From a virus, in IMG/VR virus record IMGVR_UViG_3300007512_000012, positions 1-64,000 of that record: a stretch of 64,000 nucleotides of DNA. The stretch is one strand, 5' to 3'. This document shows, in pieces, positions 21,113-58,490 of the stretch. Both the position numbers and the translations under genes were made by a program. The first letter of the stretch is position 1; each line of letters opens with the position of its first letter. Under the pieces are notes generated by a model. The model was not told the origin of the DNA. It saw only the letters and a program-made list of their open reading frames with translations, and ran no database searches.

Positions 21113-21132
21113 TCACTACCTGCGGCGTATAG
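21113..21132 (-). promoter_or_regulatory. Putative late promoter (CTAT-N12-GTGA) upstream of tail tube
   Basis: Variant of the motif found before seven structural transcription units. Confidence 0.5.
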
Positions 21133-22061: not shown

Positions 22062-23968
22062 TCAGATGGACGCGCGGATGGTCGGCCAGGGGTCGTCGGA
22101 GGCGAACAGGGCCTCGTAGTCGGCCTGCTTGCCCTTGAGCCGCTCGGGCTTCCGGGCCGCCAGGATGGCCTTGCGGACCGCGACCGACTGGCCGTTGACC
22201 GCCTCCTTGTTGGCGGCGAGGAAGTTCGCCATCCGGTCGAGGTGCTGCTCGTAGACGCCGGGCATCTCCTTCGCCGCCGCCGCGACCACCAGCATCAGGA
22301 TGGTGGTGTTGAGCACCCGCTCCTCGATGGTGTCGCCGATGACGCCGCCGTCCGCCGCGAGCCCCGCCACGTCCACCAGCAGGTTGCCGCTGAAGGTGAA
22401 GGACAGGTCGAAGTCGTCCACCGAGGAGGCGAAGGCCGACACCGCCGCCACGGGGATCGCCTCGTGCTCCCGGTTCAGGTCCCCGCCGAACGACAGGCTG
22501 CGGGAGCCGCCGCCCTTCATCATGCTGCCGCCGCGCGTCGTCTCGAAGCTGCCGAAGCCCAGGGAGGCGTCCGCCGACATCGAGTACATGGCCGCCGAGG
22601 GGCGGCTCCGGGTGACGCTCCGGCGGATGCCCCGCGAGGCGAAGCCGCCCGCCACGGGAGCCGTCTGGCCGAGGATCGAGGCGTAGTTGACCGACACCGG
22701 GAAGACGCCCGCCGGGTCCTGCCCCTCGGGGGTGCCGACCGAGACGACCTTCTGCTCGGGCGTGATGCCCGCCTGGTCGCCGATGCGCTCGACGACCGTG
22801 ACCAGGCTCATCACCCGGCTGGCGAGGCCGAAGCCCTCGGAGACCGCGACCATCTTCTGCTCGACGCGGTCGCGGGTCGGGGTGCCCGCCCCGGCCATGT
22901 CCATCTTCGAGGAGAGGTCACGTCGAACTTCACCGAGTCCGAGCCGAAGTGGACGATGCCGAACTCGTCGTCCGGCTGGAGGACCGACAGGCAGGCCAGG
23001 AGCGCCTGCTTCGCCTTCTCGATGGGCGCACCGTGCATCGAGCCGGAGCGGTCGATCAGGAAGCACACCCGGCGGGGCTGCCGCTTCACCTTCGGGAAGG
23101 CGGAGGAGGGCAGGAAGGCGGTCCAGCGGGCCGCGTCCTTGGGCACCACCGGCTCGTCACCCGTCGCCGTGGCCCCGAGCAGGGTCGCGTCGCCGAAGAT
23201 GAGCGCCTGCGCCTCGGGCACCTCCACGTCGATCACCAGGTCGCGGTTCGGCGTGTCGTTCATCCCGGCGAGGCTCACCAGCTTGCTGCCGTCCGCCTGC
23301 GGAGCGACCTTGATGCGGTGGCTCGGGGAGGAGACGGTCGCCAGGTCGGTGCCGCCGAAGCACGTCAGGTTGAAGGTCACCTCGTGCAGCCCGAAGCCGC
23401 TGTTCTTCCACTCGGGCAGCACCAGGTCGCCGAAGATGTCCGAGGGCAGCTCGATGGAGCCCCCGTCCTCGGACGCCGACGCCTTCGCCTGCGGGTGGTA
23501 GTTGGGGGCCAGGGTGAAGGGGTAGCGGAAGCGGAAGCCCTTGTCCTTGGTGTCCACGCCGACGACCACGTCCATGATGACGCTGATCTCCTCGTCGGGC
23601 TGCACCTGGCCGACCGTCAGGTTGACCATGCCGTCGATGTTCGTCTCGGCGAGCACCGACAGGTGCCCGGCCGCCACGCCCGTCTCGTACTCCTTGCGGG
23701 CCTTGTCGCGCTTCTCCAGCCGGGACTCCGACTCGAAGTTCTCGCCGATGACCTTGAAGCGGCGGAGCGTGCCGCCGGTCGGGAGCTGCGAGACGTACAC
23801 GGCCTCCATCGGTCGCGTGCCGAGGCACCGGAAGCGGTGGATGACGCGCACGAAGCTGCCGATGGGGTAGACCCGGCCGGTGACTTCGAGGCTCTGCATC
23901 GCCAGGTCGATCTGCTGGCCGGTGCTCGTGTCGATCAGGGTGTTCACTGCGTGGGCGTTCATCTTCAT
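22062..23968 (-). pseudogene. VIT-vWA (inter-alpha-trypsin-inhibitor/VWA5A-like) gene disrupted by an internal deletion and frameshift near 22920
   Basis: N-terminal VIT domain (EAVYVSQLP...ARKEYE...NLTVGQVQP) and the vWA start (FLIDRSGSMHG...FGIVHFGS) are in one frame. The typical C-terminal motif (MVAVSEGFGLASRVMSLVTVVER) continues in another frame. The rest of the vWA domain is missing. Confidence 0.7.
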
Positions 23969-24375
23969 GCTCCCTCGGACGAATCCGGGCTCTCGTTGGG
24001 GTCCTGAACCGCTCGGACGAACGAGATCAGGGCGCGGTCGATCTTGTGCCTCCGCCAGGGCGGGACATCCGAGCGCACCATCACGGCCACGTCGGGCGTG
24101 GGCTGGATGATGAGCCAGGGCTGCGGAACGGGCAGGCTCGGGTCCAGCTCGCCACGCTCTTCCATCTGGACCCGGATGTGGTCGAGCGTCAGCCCGGCCT
24201 CCTTCAGCTCCTTGACGGTGTTGAGGGCGTCGAGGTGAACCCGGCCGTAGGTCGCGTCGCGACCCGCCTTGAGCGGCGGCGGCAGTAGCTTCTTGCTGAT
24301 GTAGTGGCGAATGGTCCGGGCACTGAAGCCCGTCCGGTCTGCCAACTCCAACAGCGTGTAGGTCTCTCCACTCAT
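23965..24375 (-). CDS. MerR-family HTH regulator (136 aa)
   Basis: YTLLELADRTGFSARTIRHYISKKLLPPP...YGRVHL...LKEAGLTLDHI. Stop overlaps the VIT gene start (ATGA). Confidence 0.85.
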   Translation of the reverse strand: MSGETYTLLELADRTGFSARTIRHYISKKLLPPPLKAGRDATYGRVHLDALNTVKELKEAGLTLDHIRVQMEERGELDPSLPVPQPWLIIQPTPDVAVMVRSDVPPWRRHKIDRALISFVRAVQDPNESPDSSEGA

Positions 24376-24382
24376 GCGGAGG

Positions 24383-24411
24383 AAGCTACGGCAAGAATCC
24401 GACAGTGTCAA
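24383..24411 (-). promoter_or_regulatory. Sigma70-type promoter TTGACA-N17-TAGCTT, probably a leaderless merR mRNA
   Basis: Perfect -35 box. The -10 box lies 7 nt upstream of ATG 24375 and there is no SD. Confidence 0.6.
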
Positions 24412-24489
24412 GTGGGTGTCGCGTTTTCTGTGGGGGTCCACCCCGAGCCCCAGCGGGTAGGCGGGCTGAACGCCGAACGGAGACACGAC

Positions 24490-25548
24490 ATGGCCGTCAA
24501 CGCCCGCACCTTCCAGATCCTCTACATCGTCCGGCAGCGGGCGGTCGCCGACCAGACCACCAGCTCCGGCGAGATCAGCGAGTTCATCGCCGACCGCCGG
24601 AAGTCCGCCCCCGAGTCCTACGGCAAGGCGTACATCGCCCCCTCGGCCCTCACGCAGATGCTCCAGCGGATGACCACCGTGGAGCACCTGCTGACGGTGG
24701 ACGACGGGGTCTACGAGTTCACGCCGCAGGGGTCGCAGATGGCGGACCTCCTGGTGGACGTGGACGCCTGCTCGGACCTGTTCATCGACTCCTACAAGGA
24801 GGCGGTCTGCCTCGCGGTGCTCCAGCAGCGGCAGCGGCTCGGGCAGCCCCCGGCCAACCCCCGTGAGGTGGCCGCCATCGCGAACATCTCGCTGGACTCC
24901 GCCCGTCGCGGCCTGACCGCCCTCGCCGAGCACGACAAGATCGTCGAGGACCGCTCGTCCCGCACGCCGGTCTACGCCATGCCGGACCCCCCGGCCCCGC
25001 CCGTCCTGGTCCCCGACCCCGAGGACGAGGTGCCCGGAGCCCCCGGCATCACGGAGGCGGACATCGAGAACGCGGCCCGCCTACCGGACGCGGTGGCCCC
25101 GGACGAGATCGCCGCCGCCCTGGCGGGCATCGACGAGGACGACGACGACTGGCTCAACAAGCAGCCTGCGGACACGACCGACATGGGGGACGAGCTGCCC
25201 CTGCTCCCCGTGGACCTCGGCAAGGTGCTGGGGGATGACGACGAAGAGGAGGGGGACGACGAGCCCGTGCCCGATGCCGACCCCTTCCAGTTCGTGCCGC
25301 CGCGTGCGGAGGATGAGCCAGAAGAAGAGGAAGAAGGCGACACGAAGGCCGACCCCTACGACTGGAACGCGGTCTCAGATGCGGTTCGGGAAGGGGTCCT
25401 CATCCAGGCCAAGGCTACCGGGATGTCCCTGAACGAGTTCCTCGACACCCTGAACCGGCTGCACGAGGCCAAGGTCCGCGAGGCCCTGTTCGAGGGCTTC
25501 GACCGCGCGGACCTCACCCTCCAGTTGTGCTGTCCCGAAGGCTGCTAG
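24490..25548 (+). CDS. Putative winged-helix DNA-binding protein with a highly acidic C-terminal region (352 aa)
   Basis: Two wHTH-like segments (TTSSGEISEF...YEFTPQG; REVAAIANISLDSARRGLTALAEHDKI) and D/E-rich tracts. ATG 24490 follows GGAG. Confidence 0.6.
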   Translation: MAVNARTFQILYIVRQRAVADQTTSSGEISEFIADRRKSAPESYGKAYIAPSALTQMLQRMTTVEHLLTVDDGVYEFTPQGSQMADLLVDVDACSDLFIDSYKEAVCLAVLQQRQRLGQPPANPREVAAIANISLDSARRGLTALAEHDKIVEDRSSRTPVYAMPDPPAPPVLVPDPEDEVPGAPGITEADIENAARLPDAVAPDEIAAALAGIDEDDDDWLNKQPADTTDMGDELPLLPVDLGKVLGDDDEEEGDDEPVPDADPFQFVPPRAEDEPEEEEEGDTKADPYDWNAVSDAVREGVLIQAKATGMSLNEFLDTLNRLHEAKVREALFEGFDRADLTLQLCCPEGC

Positions 25549-26654
25549 TGGCCGTAGGCTCCGCCCGTCTGTGACTTGGGCTTGCCGTCCCACTTGTAGG
25601 CGGAGGCGTAGCTGTTCAGGTTGACGTAGGCCCGCCCCTGGTACTCCTTGAGCTTCTTGCGAAGCTCCGGCCCCGCCATCGAGTTCGGGATGGGCATCAC
25701 CTTCTCCTGCGGCTGCCCCTTCCCACCGACGATCTTCTTCTGGATCTTCTTGAGCTTCACCATCGTCCGGGTCGTGCCCGTCACCTGATAGAAGTCGATG
25801 TTCGTCTGGTCGTAGCCCCAGGACGAGTAGAAGATGTCGCCGACGATGACGGCTGAAGCCTGCTTCTGCGAGGCCAGCCGGTAGTTCTTGACGATGGCCC
25901 CCATACCGCCGTGGCTGAGGCTGATGTAGCCGCCCTCCCGCTTGAACAGGATGAACTTCGCCCCGCCCTTGTGCGGCTTGCCGTCGATGATGGGGAACAG
26001 GCGGATGGAGTACACGTCGTACTTCTTCGAGTAGGTCTTGCGGCCCACCTCGAACTCGGCCATCCCGTCGTCGTTCGTGAAGACGTAGCTCGTGGACAGG
26101 CCGAACCAGATCCGCTGGCGAGGACGCAGCGAGTCGTACTCGCGCTCCGACAGCATCGCCGCCTGCTTCGAGGCAGCCAGGCGGACAAGACGCGGGGTCT
26201 TGCTGCCGCCGAACCGCTGGAAGTCGTACTCCTCCGCGATCAGCTTGCCGTAGCGGCCGAAGTTGACGAGCACGGTGTCGCCGTCGTAGGCCCCCATCCC
26301 CATCTGGTCGAGCAGCCCGGCAGAGGGCATCCCCGCCTCGACCACTTCGAGGACCGTGCCGATGGTCCCGGCAGGCACCTTCACGCTGCTGCCATTCTCC
26401 TTGTCGAACGGCGTGTCCACCGTGACTTTGACCTTCTGCCCTCTGCGGGGCAGGCCTCGGGCCTCTTTGTCGAAGGGCACGCCCGCCTGACGGCAGAGGT
26501 GCGCCTGGGCCACCCGGTCGATGTGCCGCATGATGTGCTCGGGCACGTACCGGGGCATCTCGCCCTCGGCCGCCAGCACCGGGACGAGCATCGGCCGCAG
26601 CTCGGGCACCTCGTTCGCCAGCTTCTTGAGTTCCTGTCGCAAGGGCGTCGTCAT
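25545..26654 (-). CDS. Modular hypothetical protein, probable internal head/cargo protein
   Basis: N-terminal LRQELKKLANEVPELRPMLVPVL. Domains are separated by RLAASKQAA and RLASQKQAS linkers, with a C-terminal GDIFYSSWGYDQTNIDFYQV domain. It has its own late-type promoter motif. Confidence 0.6.
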   Translation of the reverse strand: MTTPLRQELKKLANEVPELRPMLVPVLAAEGEMPRYVPEHIMRHIDRVAQAHLCRQAGVPFDKEARGLPRRGQKVKVTVDTPFDKENGSSVKVPAGTIGTVLEVVEAGMPSAGLLDQMGMGAYDGDTVLVNFGRYGKLIAEEYDFQRFGGSKTPRLVRLAASKQAAMLSEREYDSLRPRQRIWFGLSTSYVFTNDDGMAEFEVGRKTYSKKYDVYSIRLFPIIDGKPHKGGAKFILFKREGGYISLSHGGMGAIVKNYRLASQKQASAVIVGDIFYSSWGYDQTNIDFYQVTGTTRTMVKLKKIQKKIVGGKGQPQEKVMPIPNSMAGPELRKKLKEYQGRAYVNLNSYASAYKWDGKPKSQTGGAYGH

Positions 26655-34908: not shown

Positions 34909-35108
34909 CAGGGCACCTCACGAGTTGGTCCACGGGGTTCGAGCATCCGGCTGTCCGCATCGAATCCATCCGCCCCTTCAAGGGGGGAGGCAGATCTCCC
35001 GAAGGAGAGCACCAGCTAGTGATCCATCCAGTCGTTCATCCCCATCGTGACCATCTCCCCGCAGGGAGAGGAGGTGCCCAGGCGTCGTCCCGAAGAACTC
35101 GCCCTTCG
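34909..35108 (-). ncRNA. Candidate structured 5' leader of the sheath gene
   Basis: GGGCACCTC (34911-34919) and GAGGTGCCC (35071-35079) form a long-range stem that includes the GAGG RBS. Internal hairpins include a C(UUCG)G tetraloop. Confidence 0.5.
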
Positions 35109-35128
35109 CTGTAACTGCTGCGGGATAG
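35109..35128 (-). promoter_or_regulatory. Putative late promoter variant (GTTaggCTAT-N12-ACAG) upstream of the sheath leader
   Basis: Partial match to the recurring motif. Confidence 0.4.
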
Positions 35129-35133
35129 CCTAA

Positions 35134-35562
35134 CTAACGGCTGTCCCGCTTCCACTCGCCCGCCTTCTCGTGGATCTTCTGTGCTCGGTCGTGGACTGCA
35201 CGCTCCTCCGGCTTGAGCACGCCGTAGCTGCCGTCCGGCCGCTTCGAGAGGTCCTTGCCGGTGACCCCCTCGGCGGCCATGACCTCTTCCTTCTGCCGCT
35301 TCCGGCCCTCGGCGACATCCCACCCCTGGCGGGAGGACTGGCCGATCACGCGATCGATGTGCGTGTCCAGGTCGTGGATGCCGGTGTTCTGCGGGCCGGG
35401 GCCGTCCACGTTCTTGTTGAAGTGCCCGGCCACCGTCGAAGGCGGCATCGGAGGGGCGTCCTCGCCACAGTCCGGGCACTCCTTCGGCTTCCGCCGGTCG
35501 GCGACAGGCGCACGCCCGTCGAAGCGCACGCCACAGGCGCACTGGTACTCGTAGGTGGGCAT
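35134..35562 (-). CDS. FmdB-family zinc-ribbon protein
   Basis: MPTYEYQCACG...KECPDCG. Confidence 0.8.
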   Translation of the reverse strand: MPTYEYQCACGVRFDGRAPVADRRKPKECPDCGEDAPPMPPSTVAGHFNKNVDGPGPQNTGIHDLDTHIDRVIGQSSRQGWDVAEGRKRQKEEVMAAEGVTGKDLSKRPDGSYGVLKPEERAVHDRAQKIHEKAGEWKRDSR

Positions 35563-35858: not shown

Positions 35859-37073
35859 CTACTTGATCATCGGGAAGGTGCCTGCCTTGCCCGACCAGAA
35901 GGGGTCCTGCACGGCCTGGACACCAAGGTCTTCCAGTGCCTTGATGTTACCGTCCTCCCCCCGAAGTTCATCATCGGACAGGGCCTCGATCTCCGCTGCC
36001 TGCTCCCGCGTCAGCGGAGCGGCCTGCCGGAGCCAGCCGTCGATGGGGACGTGAAGGGACCAGTCGGTCTGGCAGGTGATCGAGAAGTTCGCGTTGTAGA
36101 AGTAGTCGTCGCCGTTCTCGTCGTACACCTCCTCCGACTCCCCGCCCAGCGAGACATCGGTGATCTCGATGCCCTGGTGGGACAGGTGGGATCGGAGGAC
36201 GCCCCACAGGTACACGACCGTCTGATCGACGATCTCCTGCTGCGAGTACACGTCGCGGCTCATCACGTCGCAGTCGAGCTGCAACTCCCACTTGCCGCCG
36301 TACTCCAGGGCCGCCGGGCGGCGGATGTCGTGGACCACGATGGCGAGCTGGTCACCGGCCTGTGCCCGGCGACCGAAGGCCAGCACCACGCCCGGCAGGG
36401 CGGTGTTGTTGGCGTGCATCTCGGTGATGGGGTACGGCCCCTGCGACTCCAGCGGGTAGCGGTAGTCGGCCTGCAACCACCGCCCACCCGTCAGCGGCCT
36501 CGCCAGGGTGATGCCCCCGGTGAGCTGCTCGCCTCCGGCGTCGGTGTCCAGGGTGTAGCCCACCCCCTCGGTCATGCGGAAGCCGGAGGGCTGCTCGAAC
36601 AGGCGGAGGCTGCCCGGCAGCGGGGCCTGCGCAAGCTGTGCCGTCGTATCGGTGAGCAGGGTGACCGGCTCGCGGACCACCTCGATGAGCGGGTCCACGT
36701 AGAAGACCAGGCTCCCGGCCTCCTCCACGATGTCGATGTAGTAGATGCCGGGGTCGGTCGGGAACAGGCCGCCGTTGTTCTGGACCGCGACGGCATCCTC
36801 GCGCACCCACTCCAGCGAGAGGCCGGGCTTGTTCTTGACCTTGGTGAGCAGGCAGTAGCTCTCGACGACGCCGACGTAGTTGTCGGCGGAGAGGTCCACC
36901 CGGTTGCCCGAGCCGGTCTTGATGATGATCCCGTGCTGCGGGCGCTCCTTGAAGCTGAACTTCCCCTGGATGTTCTCGACCAGGTCGTCGCGGTACTTCG
37001 GGTGGTAGGACCAGTAGCGACGCAGCTCTTCGATGAAGCGTCGCTTCAGCGCCTCGGTGAGCTGGAAGTACAT
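35859..37073 (-). CDS. Putative tail terminator / tail completion protein
   Basis: C-terminal LQLDCDVMSRD...QQEIVD...YNANFSITCQTDW resembles the terminator fold. Lies upstream of the sheath. Confidence 0.5.
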   Translation of the reverse strand: MYFQLTEALKRRFIEELRRYWSYHPKYRDDLVENIQGKFSFKERPQHGIIIKTGSGNRVDLSADNYVGVVESYCLLTKVKNKPGLSLEWVREDAVAVQNNGGLFPTDPGIYYIDIVEEAGSLVFYVDPLIEVVREPVTLLTDTTAQLAQAPLPGSLRLFEQPSGFRMTEGVGYTLDTDAGGEQLTGGITLARPLTGGRWLQADYRYPLESQGPYPITEMHANNTALPGVVLAFGRRAQAGDQLAIVVHDIRRPAALEYGGKWELQLDCDVMSRDVYSQQEIVDQTVVYLWGVLRSHLSHQGIEITDVSLGGESEEVYDENGDDYFYNANFSITCQTDWSLHVPIDGWLRQAAPLTREQAAEIEALSDDELRGEDGNIKALEDLGVQAVQDPFWSGKAGTFPMIK

Positions 37074-37093: not shown

Positions 37094-37113
37094 CTACCCT
37101 CCGCCGTCGATAG
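37094..37113 (-). promoter_or_regulatory. Putative late promoter CTAT-N12-GTAG
   Basis: Recurring motif, 20 nt upstream of ATG 37073. Confidence 0.6.
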
Positions 37114-37315
37114 GCGAATCAGGGAGGGCCACCACGACAGGGGCCTCGTGGCAGGGGCAGTCGCAGAGGATCTCGACCCCCTCCAGCCGGTGCTCGGAGC
37201 CCGTGCAAGCGAAGGTCGTCTCGTTGTCCGCCTCGGAGGCGCAGACGAACCTGTAGTCCTTGCCCTGGTGCGGGACGGATCGTTCCGGGTCGCAGAGCCG
37301 AGCCCGGATCTGCAT
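37094..37315 (-). CDS. Small Cys/His-rich hypothetical protein (73 aa)
   Basis: TGATG coupling; C..C...H...CDCPCH. Confidence 0.55.
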   Translation of the reverse strand: MQIRARLCDPERSVPHQGKDYRFVCASEADNETTFACTGSEHRLEGVEILCDCPCHEAPVVVALPDSPIDGGG

Positions 37316-37551
37316 CAGTCGGTCTTCTTCCCGGTCAGCACGGTGACGGTGAGCTTGTCGGGCACCAGCTCGACCACGTTGCCCGCCCCGTCCGTCTTCT
37401 TGTGGACCTCGCGGCTCTGCTCGATGTGCAGCTCGTCGAAGTCGAACACCGTCTTCGGCACGTCCGGGTCGGCGAACTCGACGGTCACCCGTGCGCCCTG
37501 CGCGGGCCGCTCGTCCAGAAAAGAAACCTGCTCGAAGCCTTCGTCGCTCAT
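37315..37551 (-). CDS. Hypothetical protein (78 aa, MSDEGFEQVSF...)
   Basis: ATGA overlap with the actin gene stop; typical codon bias. Confidence 0.6.
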   Translation of the reverse strand: MSDEGFEQVSFLDERPAQGARVTVEFADPDVPKTVFDFDELHIEQSREVHKKTDGAGNVVELVPDKLTVTVLTGKKTD

Positions 37552-38558
37552 TCCTCGTACTCCTGCATCGCCTGGACCAGCATCCCGAAGGCGACGGCGT
37601 TGAGGGGGTCCTTGGCCGCGCGGACTTCGCTGACCTCGATGGGGAACTTGCGCTTCTTCTTCCGCCAGACCTTGTTGAAGAGGTCGAGGAAGCTGCCCGC
37701 CTGGCTCGTGCCGCCGGAGACGATGATCGGGATCGGCTTCGGGAAGGTGTACTGCCCGGCCTTCGAGGCGAAGTGGGCCACGACCTGGTCGAGCGCGAAC
37801 TCGATCATCGCCTTGTAGTACAGGGCGAGCGCCTCCTCCGGCTGCGTCTCGTGCGTCACCAGGTCGATGCCCGCCTCCTTGAGGGCGCACATCTGAGCCT
37901 GCGTCATGCCCACCGCCTGAGCGGCGTGCTTGTCGATCCAGTCCCCACCCCGCTGCACGGAGAAGGACAGCACCTCGGTCGTGTTCAGGGCCAGGGCCAC
38001 GTTCGTCATGCCCGAGCCGAAGCTGAAGGACAGGCCGCTGAAGCCCTCGGGGGCGCACTCGGAGAAGATGATCGCCATCGCCTCGTTCGCGGGGAACGGG
38101 TCGAAGCCGCACTCCTCCACGATGCGCTCGAAGACGCCCCGGTGGTAGATGATGTCCCGGTCCGGCTGGTCCAGGGGCGGAGCGGGCACCGAGAAGTAGC
38201 AGACCTCGTCGGAGGTCGCGGGGTCGCCGAGCACGTTCTGGATGAGCAGCTTCAGCACGCCGAGGGCGTCCTGCTCGCTGGCGGAGATCAGGCCCCCGGC
38301 CAGCGGGCGTCGCGGATCGCCGCCGAAGACGTTCGCCATCTCCATCGCCGCGTCGCCGAGGATGAGCATGTCGTCCTCACGCTCGACGTAGCTCGTGTCC
38401 GAGAGCTTGAGCATCCGGCTCTTGCTCTTCGGCAAGGACATGAAGGCGTCGCGCATCCGCTTCGTCTCGATGCCGCTGGCGGCCCGGCGAGCGGAGACGA
38501 TGTTCATCGTCCCGATGTCCAGCCCGACCCCGAAGGTCTGCTTCTTCTTCGCGCTCAT
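37548..38558 (-). CDS. Actin-like ATPase, volactin-like
   Basis: Phosphate-1 GLDIGTMNI, connect-1 ANEAMAII, phosphate-2 SFGSGMTNV, RGGDWID, adenosine IIVSGGTS and connect-2 DPLNAVAFG motifs are all intact. Confidence 0.85.
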   Translation of the reverse strand: MSAKKKQTFGVGLDIGTMNIVSARRAASGIETKRMRDAFMSLPKSKSRMLKLSDTSYVEREDDMLILGDAAMEMANVFGGDPRRPLAGGLISASEQDALGVLKLLIQNVLGDPATSDEVCYFSVPAPPLDQPDRDIIYHRGVFERIVEECGFDPFPANEAMAIIFSECAPEGFSGLSFSFGSGMTNVALALNTTEVLSFSVQRGGDWIDKHAAQAVGMTQAQMCALKEAGIDLVTHETQPEEALALYYKAMIEFALDQVVAHFASKAGQYTFPKPIPIIVSGGTSQAGSFLDLFNKVWRKKKRKFPIEVSEVRAAKDPLNAVAFGMLVQAMQEYEE

Positions 38559-39211
38559 TCCGGCTTCTCCGTGCGTCGTTTCTTACCAGCCCCACGGGCT
38601 GCCCGCAGAGCGGCTGCTGCGTCCGACACTACCCCTTCGTCCGCCTTCTCCGACTCCAGCCCCAGATCGGCCTGGAGTCCGTCGATCTTCGACGGGACGA
38701 ACACGGGCACGTCTCCATCGACAGGCACCGTACCCGCCTGCGGGGCCTGTGCCGCCACCTGCTGCACCGGATTGACTTTCAGGGACGCCAGGACCCCCTC
38801 GACCACGCGGGCCACGAGACGGTCTTCGAGGGCCTGTACCTGGCGACCCACCTCTACCCGCACGGCGGCCGTGATGGGGTTGCGGCCCAGCTCGTGAACG
38901 ACCCGTGCGGCGATCTCGCCAGGGTCCACGATGACGATCTCGGTGGTCGCCTCGTCAATGGGCTCCGGCGGAGCTGCGACCATGCCGCGAGCCGGGATGA
39001 GGGGGTGCGGGGCCACGGGGGCCTTCCTGCGCTCCTTGAATCGCTCGACGTACTTCACCGCCACCGCGCCTACTCGCCAGGCCCTCTGCATGTCCTTCGA
39101 GGCACGGGCCTTCGCGGCGTCCATGAACACCACCTGACCCCTCGTCAGGTGCAGGTCCAGGTCGGACAGGGTGATCCCCTGGCACTCGCACTCGATGCGG
39201 GCCTCGATCAC
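38555..39211 (-). CDS. Hypothetical protein (218 aa) coupled to the actin gene
   Basis: GTG 39211 overlaps the upstream stop, and its own stop overlaps the actin ATG. Basic C-terminus. Confidence 0.65.
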   Translation of the reverse strand: MIEARIECECQGITLSDLDLHLTRGQVVFMDAAKARASKDMQRAWRVGAVAVKYVERFKERRKAPVAPHPLIPARGMVAAPPEPIDEATTEIVIVDPGEIAARVVHELGRNPITAAVRVEVGRQVQALEDRLVARVVEGVLASLKVNPVQQVAAQAPQAGTVPVDGDVPVFVPSKIDGLQADLGLESEKADEGVVSDAAAALRAARGAGKKRRTEKPE

Positions 39212-39822
39212 TGGCTCAACGCCTTGACGACGCCCTTGAGAGCCTCCGCCTGGAGGATCTTGATGCACCCGGCCTTGCCCGTCCTGACCGCGCGCTCGAT
39301 GAACGTGAAGCGGGCGATACCGGGGTGGACCCAGGCGTCCTCCAACTTCAGCGGGGCCGTTCGGAAGACCACCGTGCCACCTCCTCGGGGCTTGATGGGG
39401 ACCACCAAAGGCATCCGGTCCCCGTCTCGCACCCTACCCGCCCGCTTCATCCCCTTCTTCTTCTCGGCGTCCGTCAGCGGGTAGCGGGTGGGCCTGGTGT
39501 TCTTCGCCTCCTGGGTGAGCCAGGTCATCCGGTAGCGGGGGGTGTTGCGGGTGGTCAGCTCGTCGAGGTGGGGGTACGTGCTCAGGACTTCGAGGGTGCT
39601 CTCCCCCCGGATCTTGAAGCTGAACGAGTCCCAGATCATGGCCGAGCCGTCCTCGGCCTCACCCGACCAGCCTCGCTTGGCGAAGTCCTTCTTCGCCTCC
39701 TTGATGAAGGCGTCCACCAGGCACTCGCCGAGCTTCTCCAGCAGGTCCCTGGTGACCGGGATCTGCATCTTGCTCGCGACGGGGCCACCGTAGACGCCCC
39801 GGATTCGTCCGAGGTCGCCCAT
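39208..39822 (-). CDS. Putative neck / tail completion protein
   Basis: Lies after the head-closure-like gene. WVHPGIARFTFIERA C-terminal motif resembles neck (Ne1) proteins. Confidence 0.5.
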   Translation of the reverse strand: MGDLGRIRGVYGGPVASKMQIPVTRDLLEKLGECLVDAFIKEAKKDFAKRGWSGEAEDGSAMIWDSFSFKIRGESTLEVLSTYPHLDELTTRNTPRYRMTWLTQEAKNTRPTRYPLTDAEKKKGMKRAGRVRDGDRMPLVVPIKPRGGGTVVFRTAPLKLEDAWVHPGIARFTFIERAVRTGKAGCIKILQAEALKGVVKALSQ

Positions 39823-41649: not shown

Positions 41650-41874
41650 CTACCCCTCTGGCCCCTGGAGGCTCTCGCTCAGCCGCCGCAGCCGCGTCAG
41701 GAAGTTGATCAGGTGGACCCCGACCTTGCTCTTCATCCGCAACCGCTTCGGCGGGCTGATGATGTTCGGAGCCCGCGTGAAGGAGTAGTAGACGACGCCT
41801 TCGTCGTCCCTGTACTCGTAGACCCGCTGCCCGAAGGCCGCCTGGATCTCGCGCTTGGTCGGGTGCTCGCTCAC
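41650..41874 (-). CDS. Hypothetical protein (74 aa)
   Basis: GTGA overlap with the upstream stop. Confidence 0.6.
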   Translation of the reverse strand: MSEHPTKREIQAAFGQRVYEYRDDEGVVYYSFTRAPNIISPPKRLRMKSKVGVHLINFLTRLRRLSESLQGPEG

Positions 41875-42581
41875 TTCGTCGGCTCCGGCGGCTCGAACAG
41901 CAGCTTCAGCTCCCGCCACTCGCTCCACCAGCTCATCACCTCGGGGTTGTTCGCAGCCTCGGGCGGGGGCGTGTCGAACTGCCAGTTGTGGACGGTGGCG
42001 AACTCCGACAGGCGCTCGTACCGCTGCTGCTTCACCGCAAGGGCGAGATCCTCGACATCCCGGTCCAGCGCCTTGATCTTCTTGTAGGTCCGCTTGACGA
42101 CCTTCTGCTGTGCCTGCACCGCCTTGACCGGCTCGGGCGTCGGATCAGGGGTCGCCTTCGGTGTGGGCTTCGGCGTCGGGGTCACCGCCTGTGCGAGCAT
42201 CGGGGGCGTCGGCCCCTCCGCACCGGCATCCACCTCGCCCGAGGGGTCCGGGGCAGGCTGGACCTCCACATGCTCCGGGGCCGCACCGACCGGCGTCGCG
42301 AGCTGCGCAAGCAGGACCGGCTCTGGCGTGGGGGCCATCACCGGGGGCGGGGCCGCCATCGCCATCGCAGGCATGGGCTCGGGCTCAGGCATGGCCTCGA
42401 CCTCGTCTGCGACGGGGTCCTCGACGACCTCGACGGCCACCGGGGCCATCTCGTCGGCCGCCATCATCTCGTAGGCGACCGGCTCGGCCTCTGCGCTGGC
42501 CTCTCGCTGGCAGCCGCTACCGAGGAGGCAGAGAGCGCCGAAGGTCAGAGCGAATGTCGTCCAGTCGCCTGTTGGTCGCAT
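41871..42581 (-). CDS. Pro-rich lipoprotein, candidate o-spanin
   Basis: Signal peptide with lipobox-like LLGSG-C followed by Q, Pro/Ala-rich linker, C-terminal coiled coil. Overlaps the 3' end of the TM protein gene in another frame. Confidence 0.5.
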   Translation of the reverse strand: MRPTGDWTTFALTFGALCLLGSGCQREASAEAEPVAYEMMAADEMAPVAVEVVEDPVADEVEAMPEPEPMPAMAMAAPPPVMAPTPEPVLLAQLATPVGAAPEHVEVQPAPDPSGEVDAGAEGPTPPMLAQAVTPTPKPTPKATPDPTPEPVKAVQAQQKVVKRTYKKIKALDRDVEDLALAVKQQRYERLSEFATVHNWQFDTPPPEAANNPEVMSWWSEWRELKLLFEPPEPTK

Positions 42582-42792
42582 CGAGCTTCTCCTCCACCCT
42601 GCCGAGAGACGTGGTGTTCGCGGTCACGCCGTCCTTGATCGCCTTCGCAGCCGCCACCTCGGACTCCAGCCGCTCGATCTTCTCGTCCTGCACAGCCTGT
42701 CCGACTTCGAGCTTCACGCCCCACAGCAGCAACGGAATGACCAGGACCGACAGGATCTTGAACGCGAGGTCTGTCCACTTTGATTTGTCCAT
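42517..42792 (-). CDS. N-terminal TM plus coiled-coil protein, candidate i-spanin (or holin-like)
   Basis: ILSVLVIPLLLWGV TM segment followed by a heptad-rich region; GGAGG RBS. Confidence 0.5.
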   Translation of the reverse strand: MDKSKWTDLAFKILSVLVIPLLLWGVKLEVGQAVQDEKIERLESEVAAAKAIKDGVTANTTSLGRVEEKLDATNRRLDDIRSDLRRSLPPR

Positions 42793-42820: not shown

Positions 42821-42840
42821 TTATCCTCTGCCGGGTATAG
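42821..42840 (-). promoter_or_regulatory. Putative late promoter CTAT-N12-ATAA
   Basis: Recurring motif at the head of the 42.8-37 kb operon. Confidence 0.55.
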
Positions 42841-42882: not shown

Positions 42883-43854
42883 ATGCACATGCCCGTTCCC
42901 GAGCGACTCCAGAAGTTCACGACCCCCATGCCCGTCCTCGACGACGGCCACATCCAGCTCATCGACGTGATGGGGGACGACCTCGCCATCATCGACGCCG
43001 CCCGCGTCAGCTTCTTCGGCCACTCCTCCGAGCACACCGACGCGCAGAACCGCAGCCTGCTCCGCTACCTCATGCGGGGGCGGCACACGACGCCGTTCGA
43101 GATGTGCGAGCTGAAGATCCGCGTGCGGGTCCCGATGGACGCCTGGCGGCAGTGGATTCGCCACCGCACGGCGAACGTGAACGAGTCCTCGACCCGCTAC
43201 GCCCCGGCCATCGACTCCGCGCAGAAGGTCACCACCTGGCGGTCGCAGAGCAAGGACAACAAGCAGGGGTCGGCGGGCGAGGTCGGCGGCTGGCCCGAGG
43301 GCTTCGAGATCCGCATGGACGACGACAACGGCGAGTTCCCGTTCGGCGGGTGGGTCGGCAGCGACTACTTCACCAGCCCGGCCAACTACCTGACGGAGCG
43401 GGAGAGCGAGGCGCAGCGCACGGCCCGCGAGGTGTACGAGGAGCGGCTGTCCTTCGGCGTCGCGAAGGAGCAGGCCCGCAAGGACCTCCCGCTCTCCACG
43501 TACACCGAGGCGTACTGGAAGATGGACCTCCACAACCTGTTCCACTTCCTCGGCCTGCGGCTCGACCCCCACGCGCAGCAGGAGATTCGCGAGTACGCCA
43601 ACGCCATCGCCGAGATCGTGAAGGTGTGGGTGCCCTGGGCGTGGGAGGCGTTCGAGGACTACCGGCTCCAGGCCATGTACCTGACGCGGGCCGACGTGGT
43701 CGGGCTCTCCAGCCTCCTGCGGATGCTCCCCGAGGCCATCGACAAGAGCGTCGCCGAGATCGTCGCCGCCGGGGTGGCCGAGGCCGGGGTCAAGGGCCGC
43801 GAGAAGAAGGAGCTGACCGCGAAGCTCAACCGCCTGCTCACGCCCAGCGGGTAG
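42883..43854 (+). CDS. thyX: FAD-dependent thymidylate synthase ThyX
   Basis: AARVS, HTTPFEM, RQWIRHRTANVNESSTRY, GVAKEQARKDLP, LRLDPHAQQEIR. Confidence 0.95.
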   Translation: MHMPVPERLQKFTTPMPVLDDGHIQLIDVMGDDLAIIDAARVSFFGHSSEHTDAQNRSLLRYLMRGRHTTPFEMCELKIRVRVPMDAWRQWIRHRTANVNESSTRYAPAIDSAQKVTTWRSQSKDNKQGSAGEVGGWPEGFEIRMDDDNGEFPFGGWVGSDYFTSPANYLTERESEAQRTAREVYEERLSFGVAKEQARKDLPLSTYTEAYWKMDLHNLFHFLGLRLDPHAQQEIREYANAIAEIVKVWVPWAWEAFEDYRLQAMYLTRADVVGLSSLLRMLPEAIDKSVAEIVAAGVAEAGVKGREKKELTAKLNRLLTPSG

Positions 43855-55023: not shown

Positions 55024-55043
55024 CTACCCACCGGAGGCTATAG
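55024..55043 (-). promoter_or_regulatory. Putative late promoter CTAT-N12-GTAG
   Basis: Recurring motif directly after a terminator. Confidence 0.6.
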
Positions 55044-55070
55044 GCAGACGACCGCAGGACCAGAAACGCA

Positions 55071-58470: not shown

Positions 58471-58490
58471 CTACTTCTCCCCGGCTATAG
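58471..58490 (-). promoter_or_regulatory. Putative late promoter CTAT-N12-GTAG
   Basis: Recurring motif heading the family A array. Confidence 0.6.

Follow-up and report, generated by a model that had tools for sequence, protein, structure and literature searches.

To our knowledge, the phage cytoskeletons studied so far are built on the tubulin PhuZ and the prophage actin AlpC, and the volactin family of actins is known from a single archaeal study. In Haloferax volcanii, volactin forms dynamic filaments in vivo and affects the change from rod to disk shape; factors that bind it were postulated, their identity then not known (PMC10869688). In the Corynebacterium prophage CGP3, the gene for the adaptor AlpA precedes that for the actin AlpC; AlpA links DNA to the filament, and the pair forms an early operon that carries adaptor-binding repeats in its own promoter and serves DNA replication or transport (PMC4446434). 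The PhuZ spindle positions the phage nucleus in nucleus-forming jumbo phages, is non-essential, and is missing from many relatives (PMC13282480). The present analysis concerns a Volactin-family actin and the gene directly upstream of it in a stretch of 64,000 nucleotides (the window), which is the first 64 kb of the linear IMG/VR record IMGVR_UViG_3300007512_000012 (110,937 bases). The source is an uncultured, huge, marine myovirus-like phage that carries its own Volactin-family actin, together with a small adaptor, within its neck/tail-assembly operon. The record is ~25% complete according to CheckV, so the full genome probably measures ~0.4 Mb, and the guanine-cytosine (GC) content of the window is ~68%. 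Near-identical DNA was found only in marine or seawater metagenomes, from two studies, and the same search turned up no near-identical locus among RNA runs. Literature searches on phage actins returned AlpC, plasmid prophage systems, and the viractins of giant viruses, and no description of a phage volactin system; none of the volactin papers listed concerns phages, and two reviews of jumbo phages mention no phage actin of this kind.

The two genes are read here, with moderate confidence, as a phage cytoskeletal cassette within a neck/tail-terminator operon, in which the actin would form filaments and the adaptor would tie an intermediate of the neck or tail end to them. The actin gene (Table 1) matches Pfam family PF25216 (Volactin) alone: the alignment spans profile positions 3-321 of 321 and scores 243.8 bits (E 4.3e-72), above the curated cut-off of 35 bits; the whole record gave the same result. 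At E values up to 0.1, no MreB, FtsA, ParM/StbA, Hsp70, PilM, or sugar-kinase family of Pfam was matched. An earlier description of the locus, made from its letters alone (the preliminary description), had proposed a 336-residue actin closer to volactin than to MreB, ParM, or FtsA, and had named grouping with Hsp70, PilM, or sugar kinases as the result that would speak against it; the gene is real, the likeness to volactin is borne out, and no such grouping appeared. The actin has no match in PHROG and, by phmmer, none among PDB sequences at E 0.01, while a profile of 17 phage orthologues found in PDB only a weak C-terminal stretch of FtsA (E 0.0087).

The nucleotide-binding site was read from a family alignment of 26 sequences that includes the window actin. 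D14, G16, and T17 of phosphate-1 are invariant, as are E159 of connect-1, which follows N158, and G325 of connect-2; in the adenosine motif G282-G283 is invariant and T284 is present in at least 90% of the rows. Phosphate-2 takes the form S179-x-G181-x-G183..N186, with all four residues invariant. The remaining invariant positions are R36, R84-P85, G89, P125, H139, and K227-E228, along with D206 and D209 of the GGDWID motif. The earlier statement that all actin-fold motifs are intact therefore holds for phosphate-1, connect-1, the adenosine motif, and connect-2, but not for phosphate-2, where Ser replaces the Asp of DxGxG in 26 of 26 sequences. Because the replacement is common to all aligned members, it looks like a family trait, and by the standard of the family the gene is intact. 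It is also the best conserved gene of its block: over the 17 phage orthologues the mean column identity of the actin is 75%, compared with 69% for the tail terminator, 59% and 42% for the upstream proteins p468 and p204, and 34% for the partner. By analogy with volactin, the actin probably forms dynamic, ATP-dependent filaments.

The partner is coupled to this actin. The p204 stop overlaps the partner start in GTGA (39211..39208), the partner stop overlaps the actin start in ATGA (38558..38555), and the actin stop overlaps the start of a 78-residue open reading frame (ORF), again in ATGA (37551..37548); this ORF meets a 73-residue ORF at TGATG (37317..37313), from which a 20-nt gap bearing GGAGG leads to the 404-residue terminator gene. 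The overlaps bear out the coupling of the actin to a 218-residue partner and to two small downstream ORFs. In every locus covering the spot, a partner orthologue runs from the p204 stop to the actin start, and the orthologues in 20 loci use the same start as the 218-residue protein. The partner consists of an N-terminal alpha/beta domain (residues 1-57), a Pro-rich basic linker, a long helix (97-146), the motif P-V-F-V-P (169-173), a C-terminal amphipathic helix (193-212), and a basic tail. Despite its fast evolution, it retains the N-domain of ~57 residues, the P-x-F/Y-I/V-P (FIP) motif, a C-terminal helix that follows the pattern LDxAAxALKAxR, and the basic tail; P169, P173, A198, and L202 are invariant in the partner alignment (A1). 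An AlphaFold2 (AF2) model gives the N-domain a predicted local distance difference test (pLDDT) score of 96-98 and the order beta-beta-beta-beta-alpha-alpha-beta, followed by a disordered linker, the helix 97-146, further disorder, and the C-terminal helix 193-212. Neither the alignment nor the model contains an evident transmembrane segment. Searches with the full model gave a best Foldseek E of 0.15 and, in a wide VIA search, no Z of 5 or more and matches to the long helix only; a protein-atlas search gave no usable match.

A complex of the actin with partner residues 155-218, modeled on our own alignments, reached an ipSAE of 0.79 (0.76, 0.79, and 0.81 in separate runs), compared with 0.58 for the best control, an unrelated protein. 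Of 80 solved complexes, 58 reach the mark applied, as do 2 of 110 mismatched pairs; with our own alignments as input, these counts are only approximate for the present case. The runs share at least 79% of contacts, with a partner pLDDT of at least 64. In the model, partner residues 171-206 lie on the actin: 171-195 cross its surface, and the helix 195-206 lies between actin residues 165-173 and 324-332. These two actin stretches form the helices after connect-1 and connect-2, which puts the predicted docking site in the cleft that separates subdomain IA from IIA; end- or cleft-binding partners of other actin-like proteins use the same cleft. The model suggests that the C-terminal tail of the partner probably docks in the IA/IIA cleft of the actin.

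Relatives without an actin provide further evidence, and the homologues that they encode, which consist of the N-domain only, are a new finding of this analysis. In eight such relatives, the slot between p204 and the terminator is occupied by a short protein of ~125-180 residues that matches the N-terminal part of the partner only (E 1e-15 to 1e-23); the median last profile position matched is 101 of 215 in the actin-less loci and 213 where the actin is present. The short homologues keep a basic tail, the FIP motif appears in one of eight, probably by chance, and the helix in none. Among 49 complete partners encoded beside an actin, a regular expression found the helix motif in 40, and the rest are variants recognizable by eye. 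A phage clade of 23-34% GC, with actins only 37% identical, has both the FIP motif and the helix in the proteins encoded upstream of the actin (L111, L114-L118). One actin-less record is a CheckV-complete genome of 536 kb with no PF25216 gene anywhere in it. From the short homologues it follows that the docking tail goes with the actin, and that the N-domain is a resident of the neck/terminator module itself. The reading of the partner as an adaptor, put forward in the preliminary description, thus gains real support from its conserved position, the docking motif, a narrow pass of the complex model, and the loss of the motif together with the actin; its presumed cargo, a part of the virion, is a matter of inference.

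The actin is widespread among phages of this type. It has 1365 relatives at E below 1e-5 in a set of 5.8 billion proteins, and the best 120 of these all belong to PF25216, are at least 60% identical, and lie on contigs of up to 402 kb; an exhaustive search over representatives at 50% identity gave 1036 clusters. The INPHARED matches are two uncultured huge phages only, LR745208 (485 kb) and LR756511 (595 kb). No gene of the tubulin/FtsZ/PhuZ type (PF00091) was found in LR745208 or in four partial actin-bearing relatives. The preliminary description had called for a survey of the order neck-partner-actin-terminator. The order p468-p204-partner-actin-(variable)-terminator-(p96)-Zn ribbon-sheath is found in nearly all of 22 IMG/VR loci, whose actins are 56-94% identical, and in LR745208, with the exception of one subclade that has no terminator within 10 kb. 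A second survey was anchored on terminators with at least 3.5 kb of upstream sequence; although these are only 47-82% identical, the actin lies upstream at a median distance of 748 nt in 45 of 56 loci. A distant clade whose actin is 42% identical (L108, L109) keeps actin, terminator, and sheath together. Two further actin lineages carried by viruses also have the partner and actin as a cassette; their IMG/VR contigs reach 277 kb and range from 23 to 53% GC. The virus-borne P0269 type (43-53% GC) has the order actin-terminator-sheath; in the P0301 type (contigs up to 277 kb), the cassette adjoins a NUDIX hydrolase gene and genes annotated without a function. The neighbors in locus L111 show no similarity to the p404, p468, and p204 profiles. 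In every locus, the adaptor gene comes before the actin gene.

The fold of the 404-residue neighbor confirms that the cassette lies ahead of a tail terminator, as first proposed. Its AF2 model (pLDDT 79.9) matched the neck of phage 812 in Foldseek (8qkh_G, E 5.7e-8) and, in VIA, the neck of the same phage (8q01_M; Z 14.4, root mean square deviation 2.8, 153 residues aligned), lambda gpU (Z 11.6, root mean square deviation 3.5, 126 aligned), and T4 gp15 (Z 10.0). The modeled core has the terminator fold, interrupted by an inserted domain, and the homologue in Tunturi_5, a cultured phage of Tunturiibacter, is annotated as "tail terminator". In the same Tunturi_5 and in Bacillus phage G, the module consists of a p468-like gene, one small gene, a terminator-like gene, and then the sheath, which is probable in phage G. 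The protein p468 has homologues in Tunturi_5 (gp322, "minor tail protein") and in phage G (gp175), and its sole other match is phrog_2806, a PHROG to which no function is assigned. For p204, no Pfam, PHROG, or PDB family was found, and Pfam was likewise empty for all 17 p204 orthologues; neither the p204 nor the partner profile shows similarity to Tunturi_5 gp323 or phage G gp176. Searches of PDB with profiles of the terminator, p468, and p204 had no meaningful result, and p468 and p204 are putative neck proteins. The giant sheath gene is kept downstream across the related loci.

Table 1. Features of the actin cassette and its surroundings (window coordinates)
Feature	Coordinates	Strand	Basis or remark
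Giant tail sheath, 1780 aa	29566..34908	-	phrog_2839 "tail sheath", E 1.8e-21, residues 1432-1776
Zn-ribbon protein, 142 aa, between terminator and sheath	35134..35562	-	PF09723, E 1.5e-8; syntenic
Tail terminator, 404 aa, inserted domain at ~residues 70-250	35859..37073	-	Fold
73-aa Cys-rich ORF, poorly conserved	37094..37315	-	GC at third codon positions (GC3) 0.88
78-aa ORF, lineage-specific, start over actin stop	37315..37551	-	GC3 0.92
Volactin-family actin-fold ATPase, 336 aa	37548..38558	-	PF25216
Partner/adaptor, 218 aa	38555..39211	-	Positional orthologue in every locus covering the spot
p204, conserved protein, 204 aa, directly upstream of partner	39208..39822	-	Present in every locus covering the position
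p468, virion-module protein with CxC...CxxC cluster, 468 aa	39822..41228	-	Upstream of cassette in nearly all related loci
Promoter-like motif CTATACCC	42833..42840	-	41 nt upstream of the operon's first gene

The scheme that these data suggest begins with a Volactin-type filament former that would be co-translated with a dedicated adaptor. The C-terminal segment of the adaptor, with its FIP-type motif and amphipathic helix, would dock along the actin, the helix lying in the hydrophobic IA/IIA cleft, and its long central helix may oligomerize. The N-domain is itself a resident of the neck module, and the adaptor would most likely tie an assembly intermediate of the neck or tail end, or the assembly site, to the filaments, so that bulky heads and tails would be positioned or brought together in the host cell. 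A role in virion assembly is plausible, and the cassette might then be what the preliminary description hypothesized, a different kind of system. A bolder version, which we advance only tentatively, is that huge phages run an assembly-line cytoskeleton made of actin filaments that they encode themselves: the N-domain would be, or would bind, a component of the neck or tail end, growing or treadmilling volactin would capture giant heads or tails and move them for joining within a crowded cell as a counterpart of capsid trafficking by PhuZ, and the adaptor would have arisen by fusion of a docking tail onto a pre-existing neck-module protein.

Several points weigh against this interpretation. For the phage members of the family, filament formation is predicted by analogy with volactin, a relative only about one-third identical, and with Ser in phosphate-2 the ATPase activity is likewise a prediction. 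The complex cleared its mark by 0.01 (a margin of +0.21, with 0.20 needed), and its score may partly reflect likeness, because peptide-in-cleft complexes of actin-like proteins have already been solved. The co-occurrence of docking tail and actin is a consistent pattern and no statistical proof, since the eight actin-less loci represent few lineages. The module is dispensable: it is missing from 11 of 56 relatives in the terminator-anchored survey (~20%), and the records of the cultured, distant relatives Tunturi_5 and phage G contain no actin match. In the P0301-type lineage, no terminator or sheath is detectable within 8 kb of the cassette. The gap between actin and terminator, 24-3038 nt long, is an insertion hotspot, and the position of a gene alone proves neither its timing nor its function. 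In view of the relatives without the module, among them the complete 536-kb genome, and of the distant clade in which the cassette stands beside other genes, the earlier expression "hard-wired" was an overstatement; the order that it described holds for most, but not all, of the loci, and the preliminary interpretation as a whole is partly supported.

Among the alternatives, the one that survives best, though it is unlikely, is DNA handling in the manner of AlpAC or ParMR, in which the adaptor would use either its basic linker and tail or its N-domain to bind phage DNA, and the filaments would move, separate, or anchor replicating genomes or bring DNA to procapsids, rather than carry assembled heads and tails. 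AlpA and AlpC, the closest published phage system, share the gene order seen here, adaptor followed by actin, and there the adaptor links DNA to the filament (PMC4446434). The linker of the partner is basic and Pro-rich, its C-terminal tail is strongly basic, the short N-domain homologues end in basic tails as well, and the P0301-type cassette does not stand beside recognizable structural genes. However, there is no centromere-like tandem repeat array in the 64-kb window and no intergenic space flanking the cassette, although dispersed or degenerate sites may exist. The AlpAC operon is early and has its binding sites within its own promoter, whereas the genes considered here are embedded in a run of virion genes that overlap one another. 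In searches with the whole-partner model, whose VIA matches fell on the long helix only, the N-domain resembled no known DNA-binding fold; the short homologue of this domain occupies the same place, from p204 to the tail terminator, even where the actin is absent.

A quite improbable alternative is remodeling of the host cell, with the phage actin, as a viral copy of a cellular volactin-type cytoskeleton, acting on the shape, division, membrane, or integrity of the cell rather than on virions. It can draw on the effect of volactin on the shape change of H. volcanii (PMC10869688) and on the frequency of chromosomal PF25216 genes, which are very common in Planctomycetota. A survey of one genome per prokaryotic species found more than 548 relatives of the actin, nearly all of them 40-42% identical genes in metagenome-assembled genomes (MAGs) of Planctomycetota, on contigs of up to 1.18 Mb; this phylum accounts for more than 500 volactin-family matches, which score 270-276 bits on PF25216. 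Matches of the cellular members to other families are faint, to FtsA and MreB, and below cut-off. The five closest matches, at 50-65% identity, come from short MAG contigs assigned to five unrelated taxa and are probably mis-binned phage DNA, since at least four also carry the partner. In a FastTree phylogeny of 102 sequences, however, the phage clade is monophyletic (support 99) and sits in the half of the tree without the planctomycete clade, in which it is not nested; the same half holds further virus-borne lineages of the P0269, P0301, and LR756511 types. Also against remodeling, the partner is phage-specific, with no homologue near the actin in 75 planctomycete loci, it has no evident transmembrane segment, and its N-domain belongs to the neck module. 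In a tblastn comparison with reference ORFs, ~40% of the planctomycete actins have an unrelated coiled-coil protein upstream. Planctomycetota were considered as the host on the strength of the 40-42% identity, and this was dropped because the phage clade is not nested in theirs. The planctomycete protein P0288 (1160 residues) fuses volactin to Wzz/GNVR/ParA-like domains of the tyrosine-kinase type, and the planctomycete-associated P0244 (729 residues) is a tandem double actin.

There is only a slim likelihood that the protein is a non-polymerizing actin-fold ATPase, working as an assembly chaperone or a nucleotide-dependent clamp in completion of the neck and tail, with the partner as its co-factor or as the deliverer of its substrate. 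The actin fold is common to Hsp70 and sugar kinases, phosphate-2 has no canonical Asp, and the operon encodes very large structural proteins, such as the sheath of 1780 residues. Moreover, the IA/IIA cleft is the site of longitudinal contacts in actin filaments; because the modeled partner helix occupies this cleft, tight binding of the partner could block polymerization. Against this stand the lack of any Hsp70, PilM, or sugar-kinase match in Pfam even at E 0.1, the lack of a substrate-binding domain, and the only studied member of the family, which forms filaments in vivo. Least credible of all is an accessory, moron-like insertion whose function is unrelated to that of its neighbors: the slot between p204 and the terminator does tolerate homing-endonuclease-like genes and lineage-specific small ORFs, and 20% of relatives are without the actin, but the actin is very strongly conserved and holds the same place in 80% of a clade with 47-82% identical terminators, its adaptor is fused to a resident domain of the neck module, and other virus-borne lineages of the actin have the cassette too, on contigs reaching 277 kb.

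The remaining features of the operon bear on its expression and its plasticity. The motif CTATASSC occurs five times in the window against 0.64 expected, always in intergenic sequence upstream of minus-strand genes; the site in Table 1 is the closest upstream on the strand of the actin, with the gene chain running from there through the actin, and other sites lie at 21125..21132, 55036..55045, and 58483..58490. The promoter motif called late-type in the preliminary description is enriched, and its designation as late is an inference from the genes that it precedes. Between 34.5 and 43.2 kb, no sigma-70-like promoter and no excess of terminators were found within the gene chain. Looser CTATCC variants stand upstream of the sheath leader (~35125) and of the gene at 25545..26654; the chain, overlapping elsewhere, is broken by an untranslated 225-nt gap (34909..35133) before the giant sheath gene, with a CTATCC variant at its start. 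Both small ORFs downstream of the actin look coding by GC3, yet neither is conserved: the 78-residue ORF has a homologue in 0 of 24 related loci and the 73-residue ORF in two only (L005 and L022). The first two genes of the operon (41871..42792, minus strand) overlap and look like a spanin-type pair, one product having 91 residues with an N-terminal membrane helix and a coiled coil, the other 236 Pro/Ala-rich residues with a lipoprotein-like signal ending in LLGSGC. At the head of the structural operon stands a divergently oriented gene for the thymidylate synthase ThyX (42883..43854, plus strand; PF02511, E 6e-48), an arrangement kept in the closest relatives, and an accessory island among the tail genes (22811..24933, minus strand) encodes a protein with VIT and VWA domains and a MerR-type helix-turn-helix protein.

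Insertions are found around and within the cassette. In some relatives, genes resembling those of homing endonucleases (258-292 residues) either separate the partner from the actin or stand in the gap from actin to terminator (L004:5549-6331, L007:3138-3920, L008:1916-2692 / L025:11741-12517, and L022:11516-12394); the L022 insert opens with a copy of the first seven codons of the terminator (MYFQLTE). Some phage volactins contain an intein: P0242, a protein of 684 residues with 60% identity to the window actin, has one that includes an HNH endonuclease (PF14890, PF13392) directly after phosphate-2, at ~residue 188, and many actin representatives of ~700 residues are split likewise at residues 180-205. 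Another record, IMGVR_UViG_3300025141_000016 (297 kb), contains two cassettes with different partners (L011 and L014), at ~131 kb and at the contig end, explained either by a genuine duplication or by an assembly that joins two related phages into a chimera.

By these observations, a large clade of uncultured huge phages, with contigs of up to ~0.5 Mb, commonly carries a Volactin-type actin gene and conserves it strongly, and the abundance of such actins on Planctomycetota chromosomes carries the family well beyond haloarchaea. Should the actin form filaments that carry parts of the virion, the cassette would be the first system based on actin for virion assembly or trafficking in a prokaryotic virus, as well as a compact model for the origin of an actin-binding adaptor through addition of a docking tail to a structural-module protein. 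The predicted docking peptide also offers a handle for finding volactin-binding factors in cells.

Among known systems, volactin (VolA, HVO_2015) shares with the window actin the family PF25216 and the motifs, including the S-x-G-x-G..N form of phosphate-2 and GGDWID; unlike volactin, the window actin is encoded by a phage in a virion operon, belongs to a separate monophyletic virus-borne clade, and is always paired with a phage-specific adaptor, and no role in shape control is implied. The chromosomal volactins of Planctomycetota are its closest cellular homologues, at 40-42% identity, but the phage actins form a clade of their own with the partner beside them. ParM and ParR also combine an actin-like ATPase with an adaptor; ParR binds the end of the filament by inserting its C-terminal helix into the IA/IIA cleft of ParM, and the partner helix is modeled in the equivalent cleft. 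In contrast to ParM-ParR-parC, the cassette has the adaptor first, the reverse of the motor-first order, and its actin has no ParM/StbA match in Pfam. PhuZ, which also traffics capsids, resembles the predicted system as a cytomotive filament encoded by large phages; however, PhuZ is a tubulin rather than an actin, and it lies outside neck/tail genes and has no comparable docking adaptor. Like AlpAC, the window pair consists of a phage-encoded actin and an upstream adaptor gene, here joined by an ATGA overlap. It differs from AlpAC in the family of its actin, in that no repeats were found in the window, and in that its genes are embedded among neck and tail genes, with an adaptor whose N-domain is itself a resident of the neck module.

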